Shown piece after piece: positions 13,829-56,869 of a stretch of DNA of 64,000 nucleotides. The number at the start of each line of letters is the position of its first letter. Position 1 is the first letter of the stretch. A model generated the notes under the pieces. That model was not told the origin of the DNA, made no database searches, and saw only the letters and a list, made by a program, of their open reading frames with translations. Source of the stretch: a virus (Duplodnaviria; Caudoviricetes). A program made the translations under genes and the position numbers. Where the stretch lies: positions 19,783-83,782 of IMG/VR virus record IMGVR_UViG_2681813556_000004; one strand, 5' to 3'.

Positions 13829-14222
13829 GGCGCAGCCCCTTTACGACTGCCCCGGCCAGAAACAGCGGCAACACATAGGGCAGTCGGCGCCGAAGGCGTC
13901 GCGGGCCGAACATGGGATGGATGTTGCAAATCCAGCCCCGACCACGCACCCACAGCGCGGCATGGGCGGTGCCACGGTCGGTCCTGCCGACCCACAGCGC
14001 CATCCGCAGCACGGCGATATTGAGGATCAATCTCCACCAGGACCGCTGGCTGAGGATCCATGCGGCTGTCAGTGCGAAATCATCGCAGTCACCGATCAGC
14101 GGCCCATCCTCTGCATCGAGGATGGTCCAGCGATCCGTGGCTTCGGCCTGATAGCGGAACCGCAGACGAAGATCGTCCAGAGGATCGACCCAATCTGCGC
14201 GGGGGGGAATATGCGACGGCAT
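13821..14222 (-). CDS. Transglutaminase-like cysteine protease (BTLCP-like)
   Basis: DRW...GDCDDFAL and GTAHAALWV resemble the GDCEDYA and HAVL motifs of BTLCP. Confidence 0.6.
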   Translation of the reverse strand: MPSHIPPRADWVDPLDDLRLRFRYQAEATDRWTILDAEDGPLIGDCDDFALTAAWILSQRSWWRLILNIAVLRMALWVGRTDRGTAHAALWVRGRGWICNIHPMFGPRRLRRRLPYVLPLFLAGAVVKGLRRA

Positions 14223-14260
14223 TCGGACTCCTGCGTGTCATGCCCGAAGGCACGTCCCGC

Positions 14261-14273
14261 GCACGTCCTATGC
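14261..14273 (-). promoter_or_regulatory. Conserved late-leader motif GCATAGGACGTGC (copy upstream of protease/lysis genes)
   Basis: 13/13 identical to 46284-46296; folds as GCAU-AGGAC-GUGC. Confidence 0.7.
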
Positions 14274-14312
14274 GTCGATTGACCCACACATACCAAATCT
14301 GGATGCGGCCCG

Positions 14313-26300: not shown

Positions 26301-28964
26301 GGCATCGACCTTTTTGCGGTCGAATGTCTCCATGACGGTTTCGCCGGTCTCCCGGTTGCGAATGACCCAGCTTGCGCCCGGCCCGGCCTGCTCATCGGTC
26401 AAGGATTGCTTGACGGTTGCAGGCTTGGGCAAAGGCGCCACCCGGTCCAGTTCCTGCAAGGCACCGCGCATCCGTGCGGCGATGGTGTCGCGGTCCATGC
26501 CATCGGTGTCGATTGTATAGTCCAGATCGCTGCGACCATTGGGGGTCGCCCGGATCACAATCTTGTTCGGGCGGATCAGAACATCGCGCCCCTCAAGCGT
26601 TGTGTCGTCGCTGCTGCGGCCAGAGGCCACGCCCAGAACGCGCCCCCATTCCCGGCGCCGCCGCTCTTTTGCCGCCATGTCGGCTTCCGTGACCGACTTG
26701 CCGCCAAGCATATCGGGCTGGACACGCTGCTCCGGTGGCGTGCGGATCGGCTCGACAGTCGGGCGCGGGCGGGTCGGCGCGGCCTCTGGCTCGGTGCCGG
26801 GATCGGTGATCTCCCCGGTGTCCTGGTCAAACTGCGGGGCCGTCTCCGCGATTTTGCCCAAGGCGTCGTATTTGCGCTTCATCGGCCCAGTCCAGCCGCC
26901 TTCGCGCGCACGATCTTCCATCTGGCGCATCTGCCTGATCGCTTCATCAGGCGTGACAGGCTGCTTTGGCTTCTTTTCCTTGGGCGGCTTGACCTTGCCC
27001 AATGCCTGTTGGGACAGTGCCTCGGTTTCCGGCGCGGCGGGCAGGGTTTCCTGCGTTGGCGACGGCATGGGCGTGGATTGCGCCGGTGCGGGCTTGGCTT
27101 CCGATTCAGCGGCTGGTTGTTGCGCGGTCGGCTGTTCCTGATCCTTCGGCTTGCTCTTGGTGGCCTGTTCCGCGGCCTTGTCCATGTCAGCCGCCTGACG
27201 GCGCGCAGTATCGAATGCCACCGGGTCGAGGTCGATTTCGACGCCATCAACGCGGATCACTACATTACCGTCCGGTGTTTCGCGCTGGAATACCACATCG
27301 CGGACGAGCCCGGCCTCGTCGTCATAGACACGAACGGCCCCGCCGGGCTTCTGGTCAGGGAACATCTGTGGTGCCGGAACCGGCTCCGGTTGGGGCGTCA
27401 GATCAGGTGCGAGGCGCGCCGCAGCCTCGATGGGTCCGGCAGGAGGGATTTCGTCGACCGCCGCGCCCACACCGGAGGGAGAACTCACCGGAGGGGAATC
27501 GGGCGCGGCGGTCTGCCCCCCGGCGCTGCCATCGCCGGGGTATGCGGATTGCGGGCGGAAACCTGCTGGCTGGGATGCTGGTGGGGTTCCATCAGGGGCG
27601 GAAGCGCCATCTGCGAAGACCGTTCCTCCATCAACCGGCGATGGAAGCTCCAACATCGGTGCCGGAAGGGCCAGCATCGGTGTGGGGGCTTCCGGCTCCG
27701 GCTGAGGCTCCTGCTGCGGACGGCGGGCGCCAAGCGCGCCCATGGGTCCACCGGCCAAAGCACCCGCAGCGGCAGCCTCGATCGCGCCTTCGGTCGGGTT
27801 CAAGCTGGTCCCGGCACCTCGGTTGATCCCGATCCGGGCGCCAGTGCTTTCCAGACCTTCTTGCAAGCCTTCCTCGGTCGCGCCAACGGCAACACCTCGG
27901 GCGACGTTCCCGGCAAGACTCTTTCCGGCAAGGCTTTGCGGCAGACCCTTGGCCACAAGCCCGCCGGTAATGGCGCCACCGGCGCCGCCGATCATAGCCT
28001 GAATGTCACCTGCGGCGTCCATGGCGCGGCGCCGGGTCTCTTGATAGGCCGCATTCGGGTCCATGCCCTGCGCGGTCAATTCGCGGAACACATCAGACTG
28101 CCGGGCTAGTTCCGGCGTGCCGTCCTCGCCCTTGGCCTTCCACAGATCGTCAATGACCTGCGCGGCGGTTTCACGGCCTTCTCCGCCCGCCATCGCCCCG
28201 CCGACACTGGCTGCGGCAAGGCTGCTGCCACGAGTAGCAATGGCCGTGGCGACGACAGGGGCAAGGCTTCCAAGCCCCTCTGCGCTGACCTGTGCCAGAC
28301 CGCGCCAGGAGAAGTCCTCCGGCGCCTTCCATGTCGATGGATCAAGCGGGTCACCTGTCGGCAAGGTCTTTTCCGAGGCTGCCCGCGCCTCTGGCGAAAC
28401 CGCCGACAGGATGCCCTCGCCAGCACCCTTCACGGCTTTGCTCGCGGGGTCGGTGAGGCGGGTTGCGACAGCCCCCAAAGGCTCCTGTCGGCCAGTCGCG
28501 GCTTGAATGATCCGCTGCGCAGGATCGGAATTCAGGGCACGGTCGGCCAGGTTTCCGGCGTAGTCGATGGCCCCGCCAACGCCGCGCACTGCGGCACCAA
28601 GCGCCCCGGCGCCAAGGTCTTTGACCAGCGATGGGCCATCTTTGGCGGTCGCGGCCTTTGGCTGTGGATCAAGCTCGTCCGCGATGCGATAGGCCACATC
28701 CAATAGATCGTCGCCGCCCCGCTCACGAAGCACGTCCTCGATCCCGCGCCCGGCTTTCACCTGTGCCGCCATCTCGGCAGCGAGGGCTTCTGCGCGCGCC
28801 TCGCTGCGATCCTTGTCAGTGGACAACACAGCCAGAATGGCGTTGGCAGGGATCCGATGCTTCGCAGCGATCCGGTTCAGCGATACTTTCGGATCTGCAT
28901 CAGCACTCTGGCGCTTGGCGCCCAGTGGTTGCACCAAGTCGCCAGCAAAGATGTTTCCTGCCAT
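14313..28964 (-). CDS. Giant polyvalent DarB-like ejection protein (PPase-like, GNAT, N6-adenine MTase, SF2 helicase, LPD3-like, zincin, PLxRFG)
   Basis: 4883 aa. ENAKGSERKG...YG...GADGDHVD...FDEHKVMLGF (~25770-26075); VREDMQRQGVST (~25060-25320); YEPGMGVG/NPPF (~22670-23450); AHTVGAGKT/DEAH (~19050-20960); HEIVH (17622-17636); PLARFG (~16390). Confidence 0.92.
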   Translation of the reverse strand: MAGNIFAGDLVQPLGAKRQSADADPKVSLNRIAAKHRIPANAILAVLSTDKDRSEARAEALAAEMAAQVKAGRGIEDVLRERGGDDLLDVAYRIADELDPQPKAATAKDGPSLVKDLGAGALGAAVRGVGGAIDYAGNLADRALNSDPAQRIIQAATGRQEPLGAVATRLTDPASKAVKGAGEGILSAVSPEARAASEKTLPTGDPLDPSTWKAPEDFSWRGLAQVSAEGLGSLAPVVATAIATRGSSLAAASVGGAMAGGEGRETAAQVIDDLWKAKGEDGTPELARQSDVFRELTAQGMDPNAAYQETRRRAMDAAGDIQAMIGGAGGAITGGLVAKGLPQSLAGKSLAGNVARGVAVGATEEGLQEGLESTGARIGINRGAGTSLNPTEGAIEAAAAGALAGGPMGALGARRPQQEPQPEPEAPTPMLALPAPMLELPSPVDGGTVFADGASAPDGTPPASQPAGFRPQSAYPGDGSAGGQTAAPDSPPVSSPSGVGAAVDEIPPAGPIEAAARLAPDLTPQPEPVPAPQMFPDQKPGGAVRVYDDEAGLVRDVVFQRETPDGNVVIRVDGVEIDLDPVAFDTARRQAADMDKAAEQATKSKPKDQEQPTAQQPAAESEAKPAPAQSTPMPSPTQETLPAAPETEALSQQALGKVKPPKEKKPKQPVTPDEAIRQMRQMEDRAREGGWTGPMKRKYDALGKIAETAPQFDQDTGEITDPGTEPEAAPTRPRPTVEPIRTPPEQRVQPDMLGGKSVTEADMAAKERRRREWGRVLGVASGRSSDDTTLEGRDVLIRPNKIVIRATPNGRSDLDYTIDTDGMDRDTIAARMRGALQELDRVAPLPKPATVKQSLTDEQAGPGASWVIRNRETGETVMETFDRKKVDALNTAKYEAVPAREHLESLNRKPTTVADSKPAQGDPQTALPPTNEPQKPVPTREQFEAAAAETNPDPTPAQKEAENYKTAKIDWQGMRLSIENAKGSERKGTSPDGTEWKVTMPAEYGRILRTTGADGDHVDFYMGPNTASESVWVVDQIDPDSGTFDEHKVMLGFDTPADAKATYQAGFSDGRGAARIGGIRKMALPEFKAWLDSGETDTPVSGKAKAGGKISPPPASSESISPVIENIREKAAVLRGVPKDQPPAVSGVSLKWDDKEGGFIFSRKHADKVRDAVMPKPAPKEGTPGVLILNSLQTGKTRIVDTGPSQPRRPGAADVKVENEGEHSVAFRLGDAAMIAFPDAASKTLQADVTEVREDMQRQGVSTALHDKAIEYAAERGWRFLSGYELTEDGRAFYDGLKRKGYDVRLVDLPNGERAYEVRRPEAKPLDGEIITPQDDADVRQAGAKVAGIDLQAAPTPTRAPWWDNADKAMRDAILKEAGPKAEREYRQGMAWDGLSDDGKRALTDAFGRLYRAGTLENTGTIEAPSYQIAGQKPAVGLGDLLSGYERTRDAFGEPTTDQARVTDDGYVVKRQVNRTTITDPKGRQIFAGTHNVDEAKIESVIADARKPEQAARRETPVGSKASDAPVPISPQPTGPRRFDWWWTNNRDQRREALKNAGLDTTVSTGLTSGEVADRLTGEQMETLRTAIFGPESAGAQRRKPASGILSALSEDKQKRADELKARLAAKARNQTSSGLDPEYITLGAELVGLYIEAGTKRFGQMLRDFAESTGLTMREAQAPMRAAYNHVRDTMDLDGQDVSDMDDAKAVLDEVRRAMAEAEASQSKVHSEPESRNVGVDAEPENRRDDNRNNASDDRPSPQEGAGDLQAGTGQAGSLRSDDRTAGRPGNRVAERTGERSGPRRDGQRSGDGSGPGNGTGGRGPVNHVIEPGGLELARGEKTRARESIAAIRTLRTIQQEGRPATAEERATLAKYGGAGTLAGTLPRSDGTIRFPDLAAEIETMTTPEERATLSRTSQYAFYTAESALRSMWTLAQQLGFTGGRVYEPGMGVGGFAGTMPGSLNATYTGLELDHITAQIAAALYPRHNIKNGDFIKEKLPQGFYDLVIGNPPFAGTQIKADPDYPQGFFIHDYFFAKSLDAVRPGGVLMFITSAGTMNKMDSKARDYLADRADLVGAIRLPNTAFKENGTEVTTDIIVLRKRVDSEAEANPAWRQSEVIDLPGSDGTTGQAAVNRYFIENPDMILGEQGLYDTLTAGARVGVRPRPNADLRADLKSVLSQFPSNIMSAPPESVKLDALDADHAETKPGSFYLKDGALWLFDGNTGRKVEPRSRENTKGMPKAAMEAVKALIPIKNALRDVYAADVDGKDASAARKALNDSYDAYVKERGPIGLQHRRTQRPSIVEQESARQQAENDARAAGEPFDIGSFDAGPMIEAGASMAEIARARQEARQAPGYREGTFAPEAMDDKIIVTRPNIDPFMDDPESYRLLAIEKYDEKTDTAQKTRVFTENAVRVSSRPQINSPEDALLHLLGETGRVDPGRIAALSNSTSERVISELEGKIFQNPRTREWETRARYLSGNVVVKLEEAEREARANPEYQPNVDALRAVQPAPVAAQDISVPLGAHWFPTSIYPDFAEALGLELQVEFKPRLGIWLVNGTTTGAKATSEFGTEDRPFGELMGLVMANKKVEVRRTRRNQDGSTDSWVDEEATQAATDKANELQTRFRDWFWSDPARTAEMETLYNRTFNAEVAPKYDGEYLTTPGIHSDWSWRPHQTAVIARILQSGDTYMAHTVGAGKTSAMIGAGMEAKRLGLARKPWYTVPNHMLIQFATEFYQQYPLAKVLVADEKRFHTSRRKQFVADAALGDYDAVIITHSAFQLIPASEASKKAAVEGMLQDVRDVLEGLSGGQFGEDAGMERSVLGALHSMAATLGVDVKGITSGETKTRKKIEALLEAAEQRIARQTSDKGKDAVFDFDETGADMLFVDEAHLFRKLSFATSLGSIKGVDPQGSQQSMDLFIKTRSLAQRNPGRSLVLASGTPITNTMAELYSISRYLQPQALDDRNISAFDSWAATFGTTENALEQAPDGGYKLVTRFAKFVNTPELSLMVRQVMDVVSSKDLEQYVTRPALKDGKRNLIVVEASPELKAYQQQLGARMRMIENRKGPVKKGDDILLSVINDGRLAAIDMRLVDPSAGENNSKLERMINNIYRRWKEGADAPLYGVKKEGGYTDEPLMRGPTTQMVFSTLGVNPSKHNPSFSVHRFIKAQLVAMGVPADEIILAENLTSDARKQRAFNDMNEGKKRILIGSKTLFTGVNAQRRITAIHNLDPLWFPADDEQRNGRGIRQGNMNREIEILDYSAKGTYDATMWQMMARKAGFIEGFFRGDPNVRDMEDLGEASQYEQAKAMSTADPRVLELTELRAERDKLQRRAGAAVRERQQMEAKARGLGRAIAMDREELTFWQPQAAKVQDLSGDAFEARMGGKTYTERKEFGADLISAAEDALAGTGFRHQDKVGTVSGFPLHIEVSHAMNAVTYYIALPRDNEVMVGWSEDPVGMARKVEGALSKIEATPRRIEADIARRERERADVMEGLAKLKGFADQDKLNELAEKVDALEGALLAENAPDEAKESRFDDQEPAARLTGDELGPWEDMLDLQRKARAWYRDNLQGRKVTNTSTGWEVSFTRAAAGKIGGKPLDYLLRAVPALEQIVASAEKTGESEDRFGRAHVRKIHYFQAQVSVAGRQEPIHIVIREMDNGRMFYDLNLGGNIGAPAQGQMDARETRVEPELQIGADTLNLQLAPPKINAAAVPVDSLRDIARMAEAEVAAAGLAGKVTPRVVRGLLGASGVPIQGRQRGALIELNPAARDARGVMRHEIVHALRDPDLWGQPYGLFTAEEWRALVRAARVDADLMARVERAYGDKVTSVQIEEAVAEMYREWATARDAAGPLARIFNKVRGFLQAIASGLRGQGFVSPALVMERIAGGTVGGRGPDGPGAGRMDDREMRDALMRSGAKAKGLIGSHHWKEPGAFVSSILTDAMVGKGRDGEYNLLSLVPGRPLFMELGKRLVSARAYLRTKEEMDALRNAWHGRADAVAQEWLDLRRKDPRANDDMMDLMHRATLAGVDPSKPLPSDHVWLQRAREELSRRGDSAEAWARATLEAAARKAEAHMELKRAYDALPEPFKAMYGKVLAEYTAIADDFDKAVMENLQNATRIGLKRAERAFHKEARRIQDEGLTGQEKTDALAEAQAKLDAVKARGGFAARARLTALRKMFEQNRMKGPYVPLARFGDYFVTVRNEQGEVMSFSRFERESQQQAFVREQEALHPGRVQHGLVSNKGALRSQVDPTFVADVEKVLAESGANFEVMDAVWQRWLETLPDSSIRTSKVHRKGRAGYNRDAYRAFGKHMFHGAHQLARLKYGILLEDHMDEAELEARKSDNPNRMGAVVREMQRRHDFTMEPLTSAWAAGLTNLAFIWYLGATPAAAVANLTQTTVVGIPLMATRFRKAGVSGVSAELARALRDFSKGRGANWRETWSAANAEGLAQDERDALNEAYRRGTIDKTQAHDLAAVAETGVEYSAVRERVMRKIGWMFHHAERLNREVTFLAGYRLAKADGLSGLAAIDAAADMTWEVHFDYQSSSRPRAMQGDLARIVTSMKNFVVNMLWRLFRDTHQSLHGASKQERAEARSQLIGITLSMMAHAGIRGTWGYGLLMMLLGAFFPGGGDDAEEWLQDALLMEGDTPGVAAWNYAMGMAMSGVPGRVLGADLTERVGMPNLWFRGDDRDLEGQDLYDAHMRELLGPVAGIPLGFYRGLDYIGDGDWWRGIEAAVPKAVRDLMKAGRFSTEGAITRNGDPLIEDVSPYQAIMQASGFTPAQLAERYRINNRLRNVERRITDERKSLHREAGDALRSGQPIPEGVIDAIRDFNMRYPEYPITSDTLRQSMLGRIRASERNEFGVSLNPKLNDRIRSERAPAIFN
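23495..23728 (-). CDS. Nested out-of-frame 77-aa helical protein (TnpV-like pattern)
   Basis: GGAG RBS; MITAIMQAMIDRAPKKAREISKRGPDKLEAYVRMIVQQADQEI...; G/C-ending codon bias follows this frame, not the giant frame. Confidence 0.65.
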   Translation of the reverse strand: MITAIMQAMIDRAPKKAREISKRGPDKLEAYVRMIVQQADQEIALQNVPENDPARDVMVREVAMALALETALAGEDQ

Positions 28965-28998
28965 AGAACGGCCCCCTTACGGTTCGGTCTATGGCTGT

Positions 28999-29009
28999 CA
29001 CATCCTATG
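28999..29009 (-). promoter_or_regulatory. Late-leader motif CATAGGATGTG upstream of the giant gene
   Basis: One mismatch to CATAGGACGTG; intergenic, ~35 nt before the ATG. Confidence 0.65.
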
Positions 29010-29060
29010 GCAGCCTGTTCCCCTCCTGATACCGTATGATGGCCCCCGCCGACAAGCGCG

Positions 29061-45151: not shown

Positions 45152-46246
45152 TCAGGCGGCGTTGGGGTCGCGGCAGGAGGTATCGACGGCGATGACGCCA
45201 AAGTCCTTGCCGTTGAACCGGGTCTTTTTCATCCCGAGGATCGCCCCGCAGTAGATGGCCACCTGGTTGTCGGCGTCGAACATCTTCTCGACCCATGTGA
45301 AGCGGGTACCGCGCCCACCCGAGCCATAGGCGACGACACCGGCTTGCCGACCCATCAAGAGCGACCGGGCCGCGCTGACGTTGCCGCCGACGCCGTAATC
45401 GCTGAAACGACGCACGCCTTCATGCTGATGCAGTACGGTGTCGTTGATCATGCCGAGGCCGCCCTTCACGATGGGGCTATTGCGGCCCTCGCTGGTGGCC
45501 AGCGCCTGCTGGATCTTGGACCACGACAGATCGCCGGTTTCCACGCGCATGTCGTAGGCTTGGAAGGGGCTCATCAGGAGGATGAACCGCTTCGCGCCTT
45601 CGATGCTCACCGGCGTCATCTTCATCACGTCCGGGTTGGTGGCATTCATCATGCGCGGCTTGACCGTCACCCGTTCGATCAGGGCGACGTTCATCTTGTC
45701 GGCGGCGGTCAGGGTGGCCTTGGAAACAGCGGTCCCGCCGTAAAGCTGGTGGTCGGAATCGGGTGCCTGGATCGGGTTGCCTGCGAACTCGCCCGAGAAC
45801 TTGCTGTCCTGGTTGGCCGCGGTGGGGGCGCCGGACAGATAGACGTGGAATCCCTCGTCCACCCATTCGGCCATGTAGGTCGCGGTGCGGTCGCGGGCGA
45901 TGCGGCGCAAGTCGTGCAAGGTGCGCTTGCGCGTCATGCGACCGCCACCCGAGGCGCCTTTGCGTACCTGGTCGATTTTCACTTCGTCCTGGTAGAAAGT
46001 CAGGGGTTCCTCGGTGCCTTCGACCACATTGTCGCCTGTGGTGACGCCCCCCCGGAGGTTCACCGACAGGTCGAACTTGATGGCGTCACCGGCATCGTCT
46101 TCGAGGTCGGTGCGGCGCTCGATGATGTTGTTTTCACCGGAGCCGATGAAGCGTTGGTAGTAGGTTTGCTTGTCGGCTTCGAGGGCCAGCGACGTGGCCC
46201 ACCGCTTCACCGCCTGGGGGGAGTTTACGCCAACAGTCGTCAGCAT
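45152..46246 (-). CDS. Major capsid protein (N4-gp56 family-like)
   Basis: AVKRW...GDAIKFDL...VEGTEEPLTFYQDEVKIDQVRKG...LHDLR...KKTRFNGKDFGVIAVDT; AAGGAG RBS before ATG 46246. Confidence 0.92.
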   Translation of the reverse strand: MLTTVGVNSPQAVKRWATSLALEADKQTYYQRFIGSGENNIIERRTDLEDDAGDAIKFDLSVNLRGGVTTGDNVVEGTEEPLTFYQDEVKIDQVRKGASGGGRMTRKRTLHDLRRIARDRTATYMAEWVDEGFHVYLSGAPTAANQDSKFSGEFAGNPIQAPDSDHQLYGGTAVSKATLTAADKMNVALIERVTVKPRMMNATNPDVMKMTPVSIEGAKRFILLMSPFQAYDMRVETGDLSWSKIQQALATSEGRNSPIVKGGLGMINDTVLHQHEGVRRFSDYGVGGNVSAARSLLMGRQAGVVAYGSGGRGTRFTWVEKMFDADNQVAIYCGAILGMKKTRFNGKDFGVIAVDTSCRDPNAA

Positions 46247-46283
46247 ATCGGACGCTCCTTTGGTCAAGAGAGGTTTGACCCAG

Positions 46284-46296
46284 GCACGTCCTATGC
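46284..46296 (-). promoter_or_regulatory. Conserved late-leader motif GCATAGGACGTGC upstream of the capsid gene
   Basis: Between the CsrA-like stop (46302) and the capsid RBS; identical to 14261-14273. Confidence 0.7.
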
Positions 46297-46301
46297 TTGG
46301 C

Positions 46302-46499
46302 TTAGGAGTCCCCTACCACATGTTGGGTGTGTGTATCAACTGGCGGATTATCTCCGCCATCCGACATTGTGATCTTGACGTCTGGGGGCGCCGAAACTGC
46401 GACACGGATACGTCTGTCACCGGCCTTGATCAGGTCGAGAGTGACGTCTCCCACCCTGATCTTGGCGCCGGTCCCCATCAAGATATTGCGAACAAGCAC
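46302..46499 (-). CDS. CsrA/RsmA-like RNA-binding protein
   Basis: GGAGG RBS, GTG start; MLVRNILMGTGAKIRVGDVTLDLIKAGDRRIRVAVSAPPDVKI follows the CsrA pattern ML.L.R..GE.I.IGD.I.V.V......VRLGI.AP..V.I. Confidence 0.7.
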   Translation of the reverse strand: MLVRNILMGTGAKIRVGDVTLDLIKAGDRRIRVAVSAPPDVKITMSDGGDNPPVDTHTQHVVGDS

Positions 46500-46515
46500 G
46501 GCGTGCACCTCCCTA

Positions 46516-47409
46516 TCAGTTCAGGTATGCGGCTTGGCGTTCGGGCGGGAGGCGAGCCAGCATGGCTTCCGCCCGTTCAGGATCCACGCCCATCATGCGG
46601 TCGATGGCTGCGAAGGTTCCATCATCGGCATCTGCACCCGGTTCAGCGCCGGAAAGGCCGGTCAAGGTGCGGGGCGGTTCTGGCCGCGGATCGGTGCGTG
46701 GGCCGGCGTCGTCAGGCTTGGCCTGCTTGGTGGCATTCGGGCGGGTAATCGACTGTCCTGTCGTCACCTCCACATGATCAGCATAGAGCCGGTGGGCCAG
46801 TTCGATCTGCTTCTCCATGGGCAGGCTTGCATAGGCGGCGCTGCCGGTGACAGACCGCAATGCGGCGTCCCAGCCGTCGATATGAGCCTCTGATGCCAGA
46901 TCGGGGTGCTGGGTATGGTAGGCGTCCAGCTTGGCATACCATGCCTGGGCGCGGGCTTGCTGCTGCTGGTTCAGCACGGTCTGTGCCAGTTCGATCTGGG
47001 CCATGGCGCGGGCCTTGGACTGCACCAATTCGGCTTGCTGTGCATCCCATTCAGCGCGGGTGAGGTCGCCATCATCGTATTTCTGGACCAGCTCTGCCAG
47101 CTTGGTATCGGCTTCGGCCAGGGCCTGCTGTGCTGCGGACACGTCAGGCAGCGGCACAGCCGTGGCTGCAGGTGCCGGTTCCGGCTCCGGCTCGGGCTGC
47201 TTCGCTTCGATGGTCTGAGGCGTCTCGTCCTTGGCGGGTTCTTCCTGCGTTTCGAGGGCGGCCAGAACGGAGTCCTCGCCTTCGGTCAGCGCGGCAATCT
47301 CGCCTTCATCGAGGAATGCCTTCAGGCCATCCATGGAGAAGGCGTCGGGCAGCCCCGCCGCGTTGAGGGCCTTATTCGGGTTCGGGGTTTCGGTGGTGGT
47401 GTCGGTCAC
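46516..47409 (-). CDS. Capsid scaffolding protein
   Basis: Acidic N-terminus, coiled coil, Pro-rich C-terminus; between portal and capsid. Confidence 0.75.
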   Translation of the reverse strand: MTDTTTETPNPNKALNAAGLPDAFSMDGLKAFLDEGEIAALTEGEDSVLAALETQEEPAKDETPQTIEAKQPEPEPEPAPAATAVPLPDVSAAQQALAEADTKLAELVQKYDDGDLTRAEWDAQQAELVQSKARAMAQIELAQTVLNQQQQARAQAWYAKLDAYHTQHPDLASEAHIDGWDAALRSVTGSAAYASLPMEKQIELAHRLYADHVEVTTGQSITRPNATKQAKPDDAGPRTDPRPEPPRTLTGLSGAEPGADADDGTFAAIDRMMGVDPERAEAMLARLPPERQAAYLN

Positions 47410-49664
47410 TGGATCGCTCCTTGTGCGGCGGGTTGTGCGGTAGGTTGCTCGGTGGGCTGGACGGCACCGGGTGGGATCGTGGCGGCGGCTGGCGCTGCCG
47501 CTGGCGGGGCGCCGCTGGCTTCGGCATTGGCGAGGATCTGGTCAGCGGCTCTGGCGACGGCCGGGGCGCCCGCGATGGCTACGGCGGCTTCGAAGGCGGC
47601 TTTCAGCTTGGCAATCTGGTCGGCAGGCAGGGAGGCAGCGGCCTTTTCGGCTTCGGCGCGGGTCTTTGCGGCCTTGGCTTCCTTCTCGGCCAGTTCGGCC
47701 TCGGCCGCGCGCTTCTGCATTGCGTCCGCTTCGGCTTTTGCGGCATCTGCGGCCTGCTTTTCCGGCGTCGGGTTATTCGGGTCCGCATCGGGATCCTCGG
47801 CGCCGGTGATCTGACGGATGCGCTTGACCAGTTCGTCGCGCTTGGGCACGTCCAGAGCCTCTACGACCAGATCGAGGGTTTGCAGGACGATCTGGGGCGC
47901 AGTGGCGGCCAACCGTTCCATGAGCCCAAGCAATTCTTCGGCCTGAGCCTGCCGGGCGGTCGCACGCCAGTCATCTTCGGTGATGACGAAATCCGCCTTC
48001 GAGTTGGCGATGGCGGTGTTCGGATCGCCATTGTTGATGCTGATGTACTGAGGGTTTCCCCGACTGTCCGTGATGCGGAATTCGTCGGCCTCGGTGTAGA
48101 ACTGCTCGACGTTCACCAGCAGTTTTTCGCCATGGATCATGCGGGCCTGGCGCAGGTTCTCGAAGAAGATGAAGGTGGCAAGCTGGCCCTGCTCCTGACG
48201 GGCAATGATCGCCTTGCCGGAGGCAGCATTGGTCTTGCGCCCGAGGTTTTCATCGGTAACGCCAGACACCTGCTGGATCATCTGGGCGTCCCGGCTCATC
48301 AGGTCGATATGTGCCGCTGCGAGGTTGGTGTCAGTCTCGATCTTGGGCGGCGTTCGGTTCGGCTTGTGAACGATCACCGCATCGGGCCTGCCTGCCTCGT
48401 CGCGCAGTTCCTCGATGTCATCCACGGCACCTTCCTCGACAGTGACGCGGGTTGTGGACAGGTGATGCAGCGCCTTGGAGGCGCGCTTGTTCAGGTCACG
48501 CTGAATGTCGCGCAGGCCACGGATGAGGCCATAGGGCATTCCGTCCGAGGCTCGGCGGTAGCCCCAGATCGGGGTGAATGGGTAGCGGTTGTGCCGATAG
48601 GGCGACTCCCGAATATCGAGAAAGCCCGCATCGGTCAGCAATGCGCAATGAACAACCTCGCGCGGTCGGGTGACGAGGGTTGCGCGGCCAGTGGCCAGTT
48701 CCTGCCAGTGACCGGGGCTCCATTCATCCAGAAGCTCGCCATTGAACTGCCCGCCCCGGATGATCTTGGCATTGGGCTGGACGCGCTTGAACCAGACTTC
48801 GATGCAGCGCACGCGGCGGCGTTCGGTGTCGTAATGTCGGTTGACCGGGCCGCTGGTATCGAAGTGTGCCAGTTCCTGCGCATCCATGGCCTCATCACCC
48901 AGATCGTCCAGTGTCAGCAGGCCGGGTGTCACATCATCTGCCGCCGACAGCAGCACGCCCTTCCGTTCGGGCCACAGAGCGGTCGCCAGGTCCAGATCGA
49001 GCCACTTGGCCCGCATGACATAGCGGGCATCTGCGATGTCCATGCGTGTGCTGGTGCTGTCCCACAGCATTGATCGCCACGATTCCCAGCGGTCGAACAC
49101 GATAGTGCCGTCCTCTGGATCGCCTTGGCCCGTCTCGACCCAGCCGACACCGGCTTTGACCGCATCGGTGAATGCCTGGGCATAGGCGAATTCGCTGCGG
49201 TTCACGTCGCGCAGGTGGGCGAGCAACTGTGACTTGATTTCCGCCTGCTTCAGCCCGTCCCTGTGGCGTGGCAGCACCTTGTAATCCATCGGCGCGCGGC
49301 GCTGGCTGCCCAGCACCCAGTTCACCGAGGTCTGGATCATGTTGAACACGATGGGGGCCTGACCTCGTGCAGCCAGGGCGGCCAGTTCTTCGTCCGTCCA
49401 TTGCTGGTGGTCGTACATTGCCTCGTCCATCGCCATTTGCAGACGATTTTCGTTCTGGCGTTCCAGTTCGCGGGTGTAGTGGCCCAGCACACGGACATGC
49501 ATTGCCTGCCCTTGGGGGCCGTCCATCCATTCAATCTTGGAGGATGCCTTGTCGGCGCTGTGCTGAGCCTGCATTCGCTCGAAATAGCCGTCGCCCGCCT
49601 GCGCTGGCCTGCGCGGGTCATACTCCACCATGTTTCGCGGGTTGGTATCCTGTGGATCAAACAT
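47406..49664 (-). CDS. Portal protein (P22-like)
   Basis: QWTDEELAALAARGQAPIVFNMI, AFTDAVKAGVGW, PYGLIRGLRDIQRDLNKR; start at MFDPQ 49664. Confidence 0.9.
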   Translation of the reverse strand: MFDPQDTNPRNMVEYDPRRPAQAGDGYFERMQAQHSADKASSKIEWMDGPQGQAMHVRVLGHYTRELERQNENRLQMAMDEAMYDHQQWTDEELAALAARGQAPIVFNMIQTSVNWVLGSQRRAPMDYKVLPRHRDGLKQAEIKSQLLAHLRDVNRSEFAYAQAFTDAVKAGVGWVETGQGDPEDGTIVFDRWESWRSMLWDSTSTRMDIADARYVMRAKWLDLDLATALWPERKGVLLSAADDVTPGLLTLDDLGDEAMDAQELAHFDTSGPVNRHYDTERRRVRCIEVWFKRVQPNAKIIRGGQFNGELLDEWSPGHWQELATGRATLVTRPREVVHCALLTDAGFLDIRESPYRHNRYPFTPIWGYRRASDGMPYGLIRGLRDIQRDLNKRASKALHHLSTTRVTVEEGAVDDIEELRDEAGRPDAVIVHKPNRTPPKIETDTNLAAAHIDLMSRDAQMIQQVSGVTDENLGRKTNAASGKAIIARQEQGQLATFIFFENLRQARMIHGEKLLVNVEQFYTEADEFRITDSRGNPQYISINNGDPNTAIANSKADFVITEDDWRATARQAQAEELLGLMERLAATAPQIVLQTLDLVVEALDVPKRDELVKRIRQITGAEDPDADPNNPTPEKQAADAAKAEADAMQKRAAEAELAEKEAKAAKTRAEAEKAAASLPADQIAKLKAAFEAAVAIAGAPAVARAADQILANAEASGAPPAAAPAAATIPPGAVQPTEQPTAQPAAQGAIQ

Positions 49665-50154
49665 CGCGGGAGATCTCCGACTGGCGGGTTTCGCCGGTGA
49701 CGGTGTTGGTGATCTTGATCTCACCGAAGGACGGGCCGCTTCTGCGGCGATCCAGCGCCGGTGCCGGCGGCATGGACAGAAGATCGGGCAGATAGTGGTT
49801 GATCGTGTCCAGGACGCGCAGGCGGTCGCGCGGGCTGTGAGCATTGCCGGGAAGCAGGCCATCTGCGAGCCATTGGAATGTGCGTGCCCCGCAATGCTCT
49901 GGGTCGCCGACATCGCCATGTGCGGCCCATCGCCATGCCTCACTCAGCGGGATCACGACCGGGACCGTTCTGCCGCGGGCGATAGGGCGCAGTGGGTGCA
50001 GCAGCACCATGCAGGGCTCTGGCAAGGGGCTTGCATCGGTACGGATCCACGATCCGACGACGACGATGCCATTGCGTTCGCCGTCGAAGTGCCGCCGACG
50101 CAGATCAAGGGCTGGTGCCTCGATCATGGCGCGGGGAATGAGCATTTCGGTCAC
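49657..50154 (-). CDS. Conserved phage protein between terL and portal
   Basis: GTGA overlap with the terL stop; ends ...DLLSMPP...GEIKITN. Confidence 0.7.
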   Translation of the reverse strand: MTEMLIPRAMIEAPALDLRRRHFDGERNGIVVVGSWIRTDASPLPEPCMVLLHPLRPIARGRTVPVVIPLSEAWRWAAHGDVGDPEHCGARTFQWLADGLLPGNAHSPRDRLRVLDTINHYLPDLLSMPPAPALDRRRSGPSFGEIKITNTVTGETRQSEISRDV

Positions 50155-51946: not shown

Positions 51947-52551
51947 TGCCGGGCGACGTTCTTGAAGCTGATGCCCAAGACCGCTTTCGCGATTGTTCGC
52001 TGGCAGACGCCATGTCTTGCCGCCAATTGCCGCTGTGTTGCGCCACCACGGGCGTATTTCTCTCGGATGGCTGCGACTTCGGTATCGGTCAGCTTTGCCT
52101 GCGGGTGCTTTTCCCCGCGAATGGCATTCTTGACCTTGGCGTGTCGGCCTTTTCTGGTCATGTCGAGGTTGTTGTCGGCCCGTGTTCCGCCGAAAAGATG
52201 CGCGGGGTTGCAGCATCTCGGGTTGTCGCAAGAGTGGCAGACAGCTTCCGGCAATTTGCCGTTGGCGAGCCCGTAGGCAATCCTGTGCGCCAGCATCACT
52301 GACGAACTAGACCTCCCGACATGGAATTGTCCGTAGCCCTTGTTCAGGGCGCCAGACCACTCCCAGCATGATTGCGGGGATGGGCGGTCTACCTTGGACC
52401 AAAACCGTTCGACGTTCACCTGGTATTCCGCCGCGAAGGCGGCGTGATCTACGATGTTCCGCTCGTTGAGTGCTCCGACCTTGCGCGCCACGTCCTGTGC
52501 TCCATCCGCCATGTGGTGCACATTGTGCATCATTTTGGCGGACTCGGGCAA
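51931..52551 (-). CDS. Free-standing HNH (HNH_3-type) homing endonuclease with C-terminal HTH
   Basis: RFWSKVD...CWEWSG...GYG...AHRIAY...CHSCDNPRCCNPAHLFGGTRADN; GEKHPQAKLT; exact start uncertain. Confidence 0.88.
   Translation of the reverse strand: MPESAKMMHNVHHMADGAQDVARKVGALNERNIVDHAAFAAEYQVNVERFWSKVDRPSPQSCWEWSGALNKGYGQFHVGRSSSSVMLAHRIAYGLANGKLPEAVCHSCDNPRCCNPAHLFGGTRADNNLDMTRKGRHAKVKNAIRGEKHPQAKLTDTEVAAIREKYARGGATQRQLAARHGVCQRTIAKAVLGISFKNVARQWVMN
52489..52499 (-). promoter_or_regulatory. Late-leader-like motif CACAGGACGTG at the head of the packaging operon
   Basis: Variant of CATAGGACGTG with the U.G pair replaced by C-G; lies within the uncertain 5' end of the HNH gene. Confidence 0.4.
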
Positions 52552-52617
52552 TGGGGCTGAGGCTTGCGCTTAGCTGGGGGAACTGAATGGCCCGACAGGC
52601 AAGGTGAAATGTGCCTT

Positions 52618-52872: not shown

Positions 52873-53222
52873 TCTGGCAACGCATATTCGACGACCCAAT
52901 GGCCGCGCAGATACTGACGGGTGCGCGACAGTGTTCCTTGCCGCCACATTGCGTCCATCGTCTTGCTGACCATCATGCTCGGTTCGCCAATGGCCTTGGC
53001 TGTGCGCGCTGCGGTCAGCCTGGTTCCTGCCGGACTGGATTTGAAATGGTTCAGTACGGCCTCGGCGCGTGGCATGTCTGCGGTCGCCTTGACTGCCTGC
53101 TTGGCGAAGGGCCGGGCCTCTGTTGACCATGGTTCGGCGGGGAGACGAATTGGGGCGGAGGTCTGACCGAGGTCTCGGCGGATGGGGGTATAGTCGCGCA
53201 CCATGACAGGCTGCATGTTCAA
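52869..53222 (-). CDS. Winged-HTH-like DNA-binding protein
   Basis: C-terminal LTAARTAKAIGEPSMMVSKTMDAMWRQGTLSR...VEY. Confidence 0.6.
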   Translation of the reverse strand: MNMQPVMVRDYTPIRRDLGQTSAPIRLPAEPWSTEARPFAKQAVKATADMPRAEAVLNHFKSSPAGTRLTAARTAKAIGEPSMMVSKTMDAMWRQGTLSRTRQYLRGHWVVEYALPE

Positions 53223-53806
53223 TCCTCCTTGGCGTGGGTGAGTTGGTTGCCGATTGCGGTCCAGCCCGGTCGCGGTGCGCGGGCGAAAATCTCGACCTTG
53301 GACGCCTCGGGGAACCGGGCGTCGATAACTTCATGGATCCAGTCAGGCTTGGCGCTGTGTCGTCCCTGTGCGCCGGGAATGACGCTGGTGGGAAACAAGG
53401 CTGGCATTTCGCAGGGGAACCTGCCGCGCCGCCCGATCAGGACGATTTCGTGCCTGTTCCTTGCCCAATATCCTGTGCCGTTCCGCGCCTTGGTCCAGAC
53501 CAGCTGCGACTTGTACCGGAAGCCCCACGAGCGCAGGACACGGAAGCCATGTTCGGCAAATGGCACCGTGACCCAGAGCAGCAATAGGGCGTTGGCGGCG
53601 GACATCGCCCGGATGGGCAGCGCCTCGATGTCGGCCAGCGGCATGGTGTCGTAGTGGCGGCGCGCATTGCGGCCCGGCTTGCTCTTGCTGTTGCCTGCGA
53701 AGTTCCACGGCGGGTCGGCCAGAATGATCTGGAAGCCGCCTGCGGGCCGGATTTCCTGCGCCTGCACGGCATCGCCGGGCCGCAGGGTGATGGGGTAGAT
53801 GGTCAT
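53219..53806 (-). CDS. MT-A70 family adenine methyltransferase
   Basis: IILADPPW, HYDTM, LLLLWVT, WGFRYKS, HSAKP, VEIFAR...GWTAIGNQ; start MTIYP at 53806. Confidence 0.92.
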   Translation of the reverse strand: MTIYPITLRPGDAVQAQEIRPAGGFQIILADPPWNFAGNSKSKPGRNARRHYDTMPLADIEALPIRAMSAANALLLLWVTVPFAEHGFRVLRSWGFRYKSQLVWTKARNGTGYWARNRHEIVLIGRRGRFPCEMPALFPTSVIPGAQGRHSAKPDWIHEVIDARFPEASKVEIFARAPRPGWTAIGNQLTHAKED

Positions 53807-54057
53807 GGTGCTACCTCGCTCAGCTTGGCTTGAGCGGCTTCGAGGGCGGCGGTATCGGCGGCGTAGAAGCCATGCCACGGGCCGGGTTCGATGATCCTGC
53901 CCTTGGGATCGGTCCTGGCCATGCGATCCCGCAGGCGGCGGTAGAGGGCGATCCAGTTCGGCAGGTCGCTGGCCTGGATTGTCGCCCGCCAATCGGCCTT
54001 GGCGAGGATGATGCGCTTGCGGTCTCGGGTCGGGATGGCGCGAAGGGGCTGCCTCAA
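53803..54057 (-). CDS. Phage hypothetical protein
   Basis: 84 aa, coupled overlaps on both sides. Confidence 0.65.
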   Translation of the reverse strand: MRQPLRAIPTRDRKRIILAKADWRATIQASDLPNWIALYRRLRDRMARTDPKGRIIEPGPWHGFYAADTAALEAAQAKLSEVAP

Positions 54058-55043
54058 AATGCGATCCCCCGAACCTTGAGCGTTTCCGGCTCGACGAGCC
54101 CCATGGCCAGCAGGTCACGGGCCTGAACCGGGGTGACGACGCTGGGCGGGCAGTACCCGCCGCTGTTGATCATCCTTGCCTTGAGTTGCAGCACCTCGGC
54201 CTTTGACGGTGGAGGTGCATCGTTCCGCCGCTGGGCCTTCTGCGGCGCGGCCATGAAGCCGGAGAGAGCCTGCGGCGTTGCCGGTGGTTCCGGGTGGACC
54301 TCCCGGCTTTTCCGTGCCCGGTCGATGATGGCGTCCTCGGTCAGCCCGGCGATGAGCCATCCCGAGACGAGGTCGGCGGCCTTCGTGCCGAGCCATGCCC
54401 CCGGTATTGCCTCGGACTGGTATCCGCAGGCTGTCGCAATCTCTGACAGGAAATCCTGATCCACCGCCGCCATTGGTGGTGGAGAGGATTCTTCGTCAGA
54501 AGAATACTCTCTACCACCATATGTTGGGTTGTTGGGTTGTTGGGAAGGATAGTGCCGCGGATGGTTCCGTGGATCATCTGCGGATGCGTCTGCGGTGTTA
54601 TCCGTGGATATATCCGTGGATGATGCCAGTTTGTTTGTTTTCAGTGCCTTGCGGGAATTTTCGCGTTTATCTTCGTCACGTTCCGCAGATCTTTTTTTGT
54701 CACTCTGGCGCTTAACCTCACGTTCAACGTAAGCCGCCTCAAATTTCAGGCGCTTCGAGAAGATCATGCCATCTTCGACCAGCATGAAGGGTCGGATGAC
54801 GGGTCCGATCCGGGCGTTCCACAGCCGCGTGGACACCTTGGCGACCTGCGCCAGGCGGCGGTCATCGTCTGGCAGATCACAGCTTCGGCGGCGCCACATC
54901 GCCATCAGGATCAGCAGATAGGCCCCGACTTCATCGGCTTGCAGTTCCTGCGTATCGCGCAGGAAGGCATCGGCCCAGAGCGGGATAGGACGCTTGGCGC
55001 GGGCGGCCTGGGCATCGAATGGGGCACGCTTGGAGGAGGTCAT
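54054..55043 (-). CDS. Replication initiator (DUF1376/YdaU-like N-terminus)
   Basis: PLWADAFLRDTQELQADEVGAYLLILMAMW...LPDDDRRLAQVA; low-complexity linker. Confidence 0.85.
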   Translation of the reverse strand: MTSSKRAPFDAQAARAKRPIPLWADAFLRDTQELQADEVGAYLLILMAMWRRRSCDLPDDDRRLAQVAKVSTRLWNARIGPVIRPFMLVEDGMIFSKRLKFEAAYVEREVKRQSDKKRSAERDEDKRENSRKALKTNKLASSTDISTDNTADASADDPRNHPRHYPSQQPNNPTYGGREYSSDEESSPPPMAAVDQDFLSEIATACGYQSEAIPGAWLGTKAADLVSGWLIAGLTEDAIIDRARKSREVHPEPPATPQALSGFMAAPQKAQRRNDAPPPSKAEVLQLKARMINSGGYCPPSVVTPVQARDLLAMGLVEPETLKVRGIAF

Positions 55044-55119: not shown

Positions 55120-55485
55120 TCACGGTCCTGCTCTTTCGATCAGCACCACGACCACCTTGCCGTTTGGCCGGTGGGGTGGGTGGATGTGATAGGATGGACG
55201 CCATGTGGAATCGTCGTGCCTGATCGCCGCCGCGATACCGTCGCGGGCGTGCTTGAAGGCACCGATCATTCCGTCATCATCACGGGCGCGGTCATCCGGT
55301 GGATGGAAATGGACCTCGACCAGCGGGGGGTGGGCGAAGCGGCGCCGCCCGATGGCTGCCAGCGTCAGGATGCAGGCCGCTTCTTTTGCCTCGCGGGCCG
55401 GGCGCAGGTATCTGGACCAGTGCTTGCGGCGCTTGGCATTCGGCGTCAGGCGCTTGTCGGGCCATGGCAGGTCGATCTGGATCAT
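55120..55485 (-). CDS. rusA: RusA-like Holliday junction resolvase
   Basis: LPWP...PN...FHPPDDRARDDDG...K..RDGIA..I..DD. Confidence 0.85.
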   Translation of the reverse strand: MIQIDLPWPDKRLTPNAKRRKHWSRYLRPAREAKEAACILTLAAIGRRRFAHPPLVEVHFHPPDDRARDDDGMIGAFKHARDGIAAAIRHDDSTWRPSYHIHPPHRPNGKVVVVLIERAGP

Positions 55486-56594
55486 GCCCGGATCTCCCTC
55501 ACCGATGCCATGAATGCCCTTACGAACTCTGCCGCCGCGTGCGGGTTGATCGCATTGCCGTAGCCGCGCAGTCGTCCCACACGGGCGGAAACCCCATGAG
55601 CCAACGGGAATGTGCCGGATTCAACTGGCCGCCACTTTCCATCCCGGCACAGGAGCCAGTCAGGATCTGACCAGAAGCCGTCAGTCGGGCCGGGCTGTTC
55701 GCCGCCAGCATTGCGAAATCCATCAGATCGTTGCTGCGCTCCGGGTTCATGGCCCGCTTTGCCTGGCCGCCCCCCGAACCATCCGATGCCGCTGCTGTCG
55801 GCCATCCGGCAAGTTGTGCTTGCCGGGGTAGCTGGTCCAGCCGCAGCCGGGCCGATCCGTCCGGGTTCGTGGCCTCGATCGCCATACCGGGCGTGTCCTT
55901 CCAGTCCCGGCTGCTGGCTGTCGCCCAGCCTGCCAATTGTGCCGTCTCGGGCAGTGCCATCATGTTCTTGCGCGGGCCAACTGCACCGCCTTTCAGCGCA
56001 TCCGTCGCCGTGCAAGTCGGCCAGCCAGTCAAGATCGACGGCTCCGAAGAACGTGCGTTGCCGGATGTGCGGGGCGCCGATGCCCGCAGACGGAATATCT
56101 GACGCCCCAACGGCGTATCGTGCCGCTTCCAGACGATCCGATAGATCGTCGAGCCACGCCCATGGAGGCGTGCCTTCAAATGCCGGTCGATTGCCCTTTG
56201 CAGCCGGTCCGAACACATCCGCGCTTGCGACCTGTTCGCCAAACAGCATTGGGGGGCGGGCGGCCCCGACCAGTCCTGCAAATTTGGGGGAGAGATGTCG
56301 GGGATCGTCTCGTCCAAGGCTCTTGCCTGCAACGCTGAACGGCTGGCAAGGCGGACTGCCTGTCCAGACCGGGCGGCAGTCTGGCCACCCGGCGAGGCGC
56401 AGGGCATAGGGCCAGCCGCCGATGCCCGCGAAGAAATGGCAGGTGCTGTATCCTGCCAGATCGGAAGATCGAACATCGAGAATTGACCGCTCATCTACAT
56501 CCCCGTCAGGCAAGTGCCCGCGCGCGATCAGCTCGCGCAGCCATGCGCAAGCCTGCGGGTCATTGTCGTTGTAGTAAGCGCGGGGTGCGGTCAT
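55482..56594 (-). CDS. C5 cytosine methyltransferase, large (alpha) polypeptide
   Basis: FFAGIGG, GSPPCQPFS, FGEQV, GAPHIRQR, RLRGYGNAI; no motif IX visible; start MTAPRAYY at 56594. Confidence 0.9.
   Translation of the reverse strand: MTAPRAYYNDNDPQACAWLRELIARGHLPDGDVDERSILDVRSSDLAGYSTCHFFAGIGGWPYALRLAGWPDCRPVWTGSPPCQPFSVAGKSLGRDDPRHLSPKFAGLVGAARPPMLFGEQVASADVFGPAAKGNRPAFEGTPPWAWLDDLSDRLEAARYAVGASDIPSAGIGAPHIRQRTFFGAVDLDWLADLHGDGCAERRCSWPAQEHDGTARDGTIGRLGDSQQPGLEGHARYGDRGHEPGRIGPAAAGPATPASTTCRMADSSGIGWFGGRPGKAGHEPGAQQRSDGFRNAGGEQPGPTDGFWSDPDWLLCRDGKWRPVESGTFPLAHGVSARVGRLRGYGNAINPHAAAEFVRAFMASVREIRA
55520..56494 (-). CDS. Overlapping alternative-frame (beta) polypeptide of the C5 methyltransferase
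   Basis: 324-aa ORF wholly inside the alpha gene; three GW(P/A)T..A/S.D repeats and LNPAHSRWLMGFP (motif IX-like). Confidence 0.75.
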   Translation of the reverse strand: MSGQFSMFDLPIWQDTAPAISSRASAAGPMPCASPGGQTAARSGQAVRLASRSALQARALDETIPDISPPNLQDWSGPPAPQCCLANRSQARMCSDRLQRAIDRHLKARLHGRGSTIYRIVWKRHDTPLGRQIFRLRASAPRTSGNARSSEPSILTGWPTCTATDALKGGAVGPRKNMMALPETAQLAGWATASSRDWKDTPGMAIEATNPDGSARLRLDQLPRQAQLAGWPTAAASDGSGGGQAKRAMNPERSNDLMDFAMLAANSPARLTASGQILTGSCAGMESGGQLNPAHSRWLMGFPPVWDDCAATAMRSTRTRRQSS

Positions 56595-56869
56595 GCCCGC
56601 GCCGTCCGCTTCTGGATCGCGTAGCACCAACGCCGCATCGGGGTATCAACCCCGCCATTCGGGAACTGAACGAGGGCAAGGCCAATCACCCCCGCAACCT
56701 TTGCGGCGGTGGCGCACAGCTTGTCCGGGGCACAGCCATACAGCCCCTCATAATACACCAGCATCTTGCCCGGCGGCAGACTGTGGGCAGCGTCATGCAG
56801 GCTGTTCTGCCAGTCCTCCCAGTTCTTTGGCCGCTTCCACAGGACAATCTTGTCAGCGTGACGCATCAC
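56591..56869 (-). CDS. Phage hypothetical protein
   Basis: GTG start with AAGGGGG RBS; coupled to the methylase. Confidence 0.65.
   Translation of the reverse strand: MMRHADKIVLWKRPKNWEDWQNSLHDAAHSLPPGKMLVYYEGLYGCAPDKLCATAAKVAGVIGLALVQFPNGGVDTPMRRWCYAIQKRTARA

Follow-up and report, generated by a model that had tools for sequence, protein, structure and literature searches.

The site that CsrA selects in SELEX presents GGA in the loop of a hairpin of no more than 4 bp and continues with GU (PMC7652899). Two leaders for which CsrA control has been shown experimentally serve as references here. In E. coli ymdA, which is activated by CsrA, the hairpin that sequesters the Shine-Dalgarno (SD) sequence contains the GGA site, and in B. 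subtilis hag, the mRNA of a structural protein made in massive amounts, one site lies in a 5′ hairpin and another at the SD (PMC7652899).

Phages also carry csrA genes, which the literature treats as morons (PMC9144972, PMC10269572). They usually appear in lists under this name, on the presumption that they manipulate the host, and tests of their role are scarce. The one knock-down test that we found concerns PTXU04_00028, a csrA homologue of the E. coli phage PTXU04 that serves the phage's own cycle, and its knock-down led to smaller plaques (PMC11879866). It has already been noted that csrA-positive phages infect csrA-less Burkholderia (PMC7366521).

The closest described genes are those of the Bcep22 gp54 type, which occur in Lessievirus, Gervaisevirus, Parlovirus and their relatives (JC1 gp47, DC1, CSP3 orf23, Parlo gp062). 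We analyzed a stretch of 64,000 nucleotides of phage DNA, hereafter the window, that contains a gene of this kind, like PTXU04_00028 a phage-encoded CsrA homologue. As in the gp54 type, the gene order is portal, scaffold-position gene, CsrA-like gene and capsid gene, the protein falls in the size range of ~55–70 aa, and a box-bearing capsid leader follows downstream. Unlike the window protein, the Bcep22-type members have Arg at the position of CsrA Arg44 and a basic beta-1 residue, and they pass the Pfam CsrA cut-off. The window subfamily further differs from them in lacking BLAST-level similarity to any isolated phage, in two extra N-terminal residues, and in a tail encoded by promoter-like DNA.

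The CsrA-like gene, its neighbors and its host

The CsrA-like gene occupies 46302–46499 on the minus strand and encodes 65 aa, from a GTG start at 46499 to a TAA stop (46304–46302). An ORF at this position was described in the original prediction, and the peptide motifs quoted there are right. The strong GGAGG-type ribosome-binding site claimed for it is also present, as GGGAGG read from the sequence at 46508–46513 (minus strand), 8 nt 5′ of the GTG. An alternative start at GTG 46508, used for a longer version in the ORF list, begins within this ribosome-binding site and is less likely than GTG 46499. Compared with the closest relative, L104 (69% amino acid identity), 16 codons are changed synonymously, mostly in the beta core, and 20 are changed non-synonymously.

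The gene is followed by the major capsid protein gene (45152–46246, minus strand; PF13252, E 3e-58) and preceded by a gene for a 297-aa protein (46516–47409, minus strand), a P22-type portal gene (47406–49943, minus strand; PF16510, E 1.7e-172) and the large terminase gene. The capsid gene likely starts at ATG 46246 rather than at TTG 46267 of the ORF list, because AAGGAG lies 8 nt upstream of this ATG and the starts of relatives align with it; TTG 46267 falls within the capsid leader hairpin described below. The 297-aa protein, a conserved neighbor that matches phrog_8246 of unknown function, is acidic and rich in Ala, Gln and Pro. It is a putative scaffold protein, a label given only for its position and composition, and gp46, its counterpart by homology in JC1, has been reported from virions (PMC9144972).

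This placement, directly upstream of a PF13252 capsid gene and with a P22-type portal gene and a ~300-aa gene ahead of it, is that of the gp54 type. The capsid protein is 50–55% identical to those of Bcep22, DC1, JC1, POI1126, Parlo, PEp14 and others, with 55% for Bcep22 and DC1. The gene directly 5′ of the capsid gene is annotated as ‘CsrA-like regulator protein’ in Bcep22 (gp54) and Parlo, in line with the earlier remark that phage csrA homologues had been annotated before, and a tblastn search with gp54 found 62 phage records that share this annotation or this position. Of 86 relatives of the capsid gene chosen without regard to the CsrA-like gene, 80 are immediately preceded, in the same orientation, by a homologous ORF. 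The gene was originally described as wedged between scaffold and capsid genes. It does adjoin the capsid gene, but it is a syntenic core gene of Bcep22-like podophages rather than an odd insertion.

Among the backbone traits of Bcep22-type phages (~60 kb, a giant DarB-like protein, a SU10-type adaptor), the window contains a 4883-aa ORF and SU10_adaptor matches. The single ORF of 4883 codons, at 14313–28964 on the minus strand, is the counterpart of the giant DarB-like or polyvalent proteins of Bcep22-like phages, and gp30 of POI1126 is found at the same position. In the same phage, gp06 (L013 2957–3151), annotated as hypothetical, is a very divergent CsrA-like member (Pfam E 0.0047, iterated HMM E 1.9e-11) and is separated from the capsid gene by three reverse-strand genes. 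Three methylase genes lie within the prophage or close to it (53219–54118, 55482–56630 and 1256–2983, all minus strand), one for an MT-A70 adenine methylase and two for C5 cytosine methylases, and the window also has an AIPR abortive-infection gene at 69–1160.

The host proposed originally was an alphaproteobacterium from a lineage generally without Csr, and both parts stand. A genome of the same GTDB family as that of the window (G197) is Frigidibacter oleivorans, of Rhodobacterales. In the window's own genome, which is 100% complete, no CsrA above the cut-off, no FliW and no FlbT were found. PF02599 matches occur in 3 of 301 genomes sampled from the order, and every match adjoins a homologue of the same capsid gene. 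Because of these own-genome negatives and the order survey, the description ‘host lineage without Csr’ holds for the genomes searched. The setting therefore differs from that of bacterial CsrA in that Csr sRNA and FliW partners are absent from the window's host. Relatives of the window subfamily were found in metagenomes and in genomes of Paracoccus, Frigidibacter and Celeribacter, and a scan of the genome contigs for related loci found only two loci.

CsrA homology, predicted fold and divergence

A CsrA-family HMM search had been suggested as a check. The single protein does not reach the Pfam cut-off, whereas its relatives and the subfamily profile do match CsrA. The 65-aa protein scores 15.5 bits against Pfam CsrA PF02599 (cut-off 27, E 0.018) and 13.7 against NCBIfam NF002469 (cut-off 73, E 0.047), and its best match in PDB is RsmE with E 0.09. 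Despite these sub-threshold scores, CsrA is its best match in all three collections. The protein has no PHROG match and no tblastn match in 50,697 phage records, and an exhaustive phmmer search gave seven small relatives. The Pfam CsrA cut-off is passed by relatives P0011 (38.2 bits) and P0014 (32.8 bits) and by Bcep22 gp54 (32.2 bits).

The profile of the window subfamily (A1) matches nine distinct PDB sequences of CsrA, RsmA and RsmE over residues 11–47 with E 1.4e-6 to 3.2e-5, the nine being all the distinct CsrA-type entries with the canonical fold; its best non-CsrA match in PDB has E 0.14. The window subfamily is matched to Bcep22-type sequences by hhalign at 96.6% (E 5.7e-10), and an iterated HMM gives E 2.4e-14 for homology to gp54-type proteins. 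As in bacterial CsrA, RsmA and RsmE, represented by PDB 1y00, 1vpz, 2jpp and 7yr6, the beta2–beta5 pattern, a G-D turn and A-P before beta5 are present.

An AlphaFold model built from 28 sequences has a pLDDT of 78.9, with block means of 82–92 for residues 1–40, and predicts the five-strand beta core of the CsrA fold. This core, beta1–beta5, is net basic and is encoded by codons 1–46 (46362–46499, minus strand), which include the part where the subfamily profile matches PDB CsrA (residues 11–46). In a Foldseek search with the model, the top 11 matches are all CsrA, RsmA or RsmE, with probabilities of 0.93–1.0, TM scores of 0.49–0.65 and rmsd of 2.2–2.9 Å over 46–47 columns. VIA-align gives Z of 2.9–4.2 for CsrA chains and no more than 2.2 for unrelated chains; modest Z values are expected for a single chain of a swapped dimer. 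Both programs align residues 1–48 to CsrA chains, so that the predicted fold of this part is like that of bacterial CsrA, and neither found a structural homologue other than CsrA. In the monomer model beta1 and beta5 are unpaired within the chain, which would be compatible with domain swapping. With the profile matches to solved CsrA structures at E ~1e-6 and the top Foldseek matches all CsrA, the original description of the protein as CsrA-like but divergent is borne out, and we are highly confident that the gene encodes a CsrA-fold homologue and is a core gene of the head module.

The divergence had been seen in MSD replacing the usual REE at the start of the helix. Indeed, T44-M45-S46-D47 align with H43-R44-E45-E46 of CsrA/RsmE, but the divergence is wider than the missing REE, as Arg44 and the beta-1 arginines are also gone. 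In PDB, profile and hhalign alignments alike, Met45 occupies the position of CsrA Arg44. For beta-1, the role of the motif L2, L4, R6 and R7 is known from CsrA mutagenesis. In the hhalign register, Ile6 of the window protein corresponds to Leu4 of CsrA, Met8 and Gly9 stand at the places of Arg6 and Arg7, and a basic residue is found instead at position 4. The N-terminus, where the two extra residues lie, follows the conserved pattern ML-V/I-K/R-N-I. CsrA proteins reportedly require Arg44 to bind RNA (PMC7366521). With Arg44 and the beta-1 arginines absent, therefore, canonical GGA binding cannot be assumed. Within the window clade the Arg44 position is unconstrained, being M, T, A, I, K or R, and the GGA box of the leader is nevertheless retained.

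Bacterial CsrA continues after beta5 with a C-terminal alpha-helix (H1), whereas AlphaFold predicts none in the window protein, where this region is rich in Gly, Asp and Pro. The helix-less tail of codons 47–65 (46305–46361, minus strand) is modeled with low confidence, with block-mean pLDDT of 58 for residues 51–60 and 47 for residues 61–65. The last 14 codons overlap conserved promoter-like DNA. In relatives the same motif lies outside the ORF, and the tail DNA is nearly unchanged in comparison with L104 while the core is divergent. Given these two observations, the ‘PVD...VVG’ conservation in the tail probably reflects the promoter-like DNA rather than a feature of the protein.

The motif consists of a −35-like TTGATA (46334–46339, minus strand), read in frame as Val-Asp-Thr of the tail, then 18 nt, then TAGGGG with TGTGG before it. 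The last part is a putative extended −10-like element, TGTGGTAGGGG (46310–46320, minus strand), of which TGTGGTA is conserved in the window clade. TTGAnn is conserved 18 nt before the TGTGGTA element in L004, L005, L006, L016 and others. A scan of 46150–46650 with the sigma-70 consensus found no promoter, and we refer to TTGATA/TGTGGTA only as a conserved promoter-like motif.

The capsid leader and copies of its box

Between the CsrA-like gene and the capsid gene lies a leader with a short conserved box (46283–46296, minus strand). It can fold on itself into a minihairpin of 4 bp, whose loop is AGGAC, or serve as the 5′ arm in a long hairpin. Nearly all relatives have a conserved box of 13–14 nt that precedes the capsid AUG by 33–61 nt, and its consensus in most lineages is GC-R-Y-A-GGA-Y-GUGC. 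The minihairpin form resembles the SELEX-derived CsrA site. The long hairpin (46242–46297, minus strand) pairs both the SD and the AUG of the capsid gene, with a minimum free energy of −28 kcal/mol (z −4.77), and none of 200 shuffled sequences is as stable. The SD itself, AAGGAG at 46255–46260 (minus strand; read from the sequence), provides a second GGA site.

The two structures were examined separately. With a MAFFT alignment as input, RNAalifold returned the minihairpin alone, as variable spacing puts the 3′ arm of the long helix out of register. The minihairpin is 92.9% paired across 70 sequences, with a covariation score of 0.252, compared with 0.167 for shuffles and no more than 0.153 for slid controls. 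Because of the misplaced 3′ arm, the long helix was tested by permutation of cognate and non-cognate duplexes. In 68 distinct leaders, the duplex of the box with its own pre-AUG segment averages −12.9 kcal/mol, compared with −9.1 kcal/mol for non-cognate and −6.4 kcal/mol for shuffled partners, and none of 10000 partner permutations reaches the observed cognate mean. Compensatory changes are visible by eye, as in GGAGUGC/GCACUCC, GGAUGUGC/GCACAUCC and CAUGACGUG/CACGUCAUG. The minihairpin and the long hairpin are mutually exclusive, and the AUG is freed if the minihairpin is imposed, which costs ~13.5 kcal/mol. The leader has no Rfam family, and in the limited collection of literature that we searched no paper links the CsrA-like gene to the capsid leader.

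Further copies of the box are found on the late strand. Two tandem copies lie in the leader before the lysis block (14249–14273, minus strand) and include an exact copy of the box 12-mer. In this leader (14220–14300, minus strand) there is also a stem capped by UUCG, and an AGGAG SD precedes an ATG at 14222. A box-like copy with three mismatches lies in the leader of the 4883-aa gene (28997–29010, minus strand), where CCAUAG of the box is complementary to CUAUGG at the start of that gene. A second CCAUAG copy was seen in this leader (28960–29040, minus strand), between the box-like copy and the start codon. A GGTA element precedes the box by 17 nt in the capsid and lysis leaders and by 19 nt in the leader of the giant gene.

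The 4.17 Mb genome holds three copies of the exact 12-mer, and two of these lie in this prophage. The third copy (G000:C27:280980–280991, minus strand), outside this contig, could mark a second related prophage or could be due to chance, as about one copy is expected. Another box-like match, at 52487–52500, falls within the first codons of a reading frame of HNH type and, as a likely chance match, was set aside; this endonuclease frame, with an H-S-C-D-N-P motif, lies just upstream of the terminase region (52200–52560, minus strand). Autoregulation was also considered. A box-like sequence is present at the ribosome-binding site of the CsrA-like gene itself, but it is absent as a conserved element in L104 and L106, and the idea was rejected.

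Phage POI1126 has its own variant of the box, in which UGA replaces GGA. The coding strand carries five copies, at positions 15321, 18521, 21639, 36271 and 7409 of L103 / KY417925.1. They precede the capsid gene, gp21, gp26, the giant gp30 and the lysis gene gp32, and every copy follows a −10-like hexamer by 10–13 nt and precedes the start of a late gene by 20–45 nt. As annotated, gp26 begins at 18530, a start that overlaps the box and probably lies too far upstream. One variant common to all copies in a genome argues for recognition by some factor encoded in that genome. Arg or Lys occupies the Arg44 position in 36 of 53 distinct GGA-box cases and in 1 of 12 UGA-box cases, in a count that ignores phylogeny and with an alignment possibly off by one. 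This association between residue and box type is suggestive only, and a rule that the GGA box implies Arg44 was rejected, as it fails in the window clade.

Candidate roles of the CsrA-like protein

The best overall explanation is that of a phage late-gene translational regulator acting on the box leaders, to which we give about even chances; that the CsrA-like protein itself acts on these leaders we rate slightly short of even. On this model the protein, with a minimal CsrA fold of beta1–beta5, probably a swapped dimer, and then a disordered tail, would be made together with the portal and scaffold-position proteins. It would bind the box hairpin with its GGA loop near the 5′ end of late phage mRNAs, namely that of the capsid gene and probably also the mRNAs of the lysis block and of the giant polyvalent gene. 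By holding the box in the minihairpin form it would free the SD and AUG of the capsid gene, and capsid translation would be switched on after portal and scaffold synthesis, much as CsrA acts at E. coli ymdA.

A very stable hairpin locks the start of the most abundant virion protein, which makes an opening factor plausible, and by the ymdA analogy the adjoining CsrA-fold protein is the obvious candidate. The opening cost of ~13.5 kcal/mol applies at equilibrium, and therefore binding would have to act co-transcriptionally. Like the ymdA leader, the phage leader has a hairpin that masks the SD and contains a GGA site, and like the hag leader it combines a 5′ hairpin site and an SD site in the mRNA of a massively made structural protein. 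Unlike both, the phage cassette is repeated before several late genes in a variant specific to each genome, and its control is what we infer here. The original prediction offered two targets, phage RNAs or host translation. Action on phage RNAs is the better option, as a leader with a GGA box adjoins the gene and recurs in the genome, whereas rewiring of host translation finds no support.

A more specific form of the model is a dedicated late-gene switch that reads the genome-specific box and opens the start hairpins of the capsid, giant and lysis genes, in the window clade through an RNA surface independent of Arg44. This is possible, though on balance doubtful. Because the Arg44 position is unconstrained in the window clade and the GGA box is yet kept, the box could instead be kept for pairing, 5′-end stability, ribosome standby or another factor. 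Part of its conservation may even act at the DNA level, because the box lies at a fixed distance from promoter-like elements.

The same freedom at Arg44 bears on an alternative that we consider unlikely but still serious, in which the CsrA fold no longer binds RNA and the protein works in head assembly or in the virion (as a scaffold accessory, minor capsid protein or cargo), while the leader is run otherwise. The loss of Arg44, of the Arg6/Arg7 equivalents and of the helix would fit such a role, as would the location of the gene among structural genes, and gp47, the homologous protein of JC1, was identified in purified virions (PMC9144972). That detection, however, is by a single peptide and is weak evidence. 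The core of the protein is still net basic, the Bcep22-type members retain Arg44 and pass Pfam CsrA, and CsrA is the sole structural homologue found.

If the protein does act on the box leaders, activation is somewhat favored over repression. In a repressor model, a dimer would bridge the GGA of the box and the GGA of the AAGGAG SD, which are ~30 nt apart, and limit translation of the capsid and lysis genes, much like the action of CsrA on the B. subtilis hag leader; relief might come from a structural protein through partner switching. The two GGA motifs suit this model, SD occlusion is the common mode of repression by CsrA, and the homeostasis loop of hag and FliW offers a precedent (PMC7652899). 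The leader is already closed without protein at −28 kcal/mol, however, so that for the most abundant virion protein a repressor would appear superfluous. A search of the host genome revealed no FliW-like partner, and knock-down of a phage csrA gene lowered rather than raised fitness, although this is weak evidence. We regard repression by such bridging as distinctly unlikely.

Still less credible is a moron that reprograms host translation or metabolism through host mRNAs, which we judge improbable. It is the interpretation offered in phage papers (PMC9144972, PMC10269572, PMC8450108), and any SD-like GGA is bindable in principle. On the other hand, the gene is a core, syntenic part of the head module and not an accessory one, the host order has no Csr circuit to join, the canonical RNA-binding residues are absent, the exact box 12-mer is hardly found outside the prophage, and placement in a late structural operon is ill-suited to lysogenic conversion. 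A chance ORF in GC-rich DNA, which the shortness of the frame, its GTG start and its score below the Pfam cut-off might suggest, is already refuted by conservation, the same position being kept in 80 of 86 relatives, and has next to no probability given the profile homology, the synonymous substitutions, the strong ribosome-binding site and the confident predicted fold.

The CsrA-like gene is of a kind already annotated in many phages, and the point about a host without Csr is already published. What is added here is a variant in Rhodobacterales prophages without Arg44 and the helix, a tail overlapping promoter-like DNA, and a covarying, repeated leader as a testable candidate target for a phage CsrA. 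With a conserved leader next to the gene, a protein, a 60-nt RNA and a reporter offer a cheap and concrete route to what phage CsrA does. The clade without Arg44 bears on whether the CsrA fold has another mode of RNA binding or has been re-used for another job. More broadly, a large group of podophages has a CsrA-like gene as a core component of its head module, and this gene persists in hosts free of Csr. If the proposed regulation is true, capsid synthesis and lysis timing would be coupled to the earlier expression of the portal and scaffold operon.
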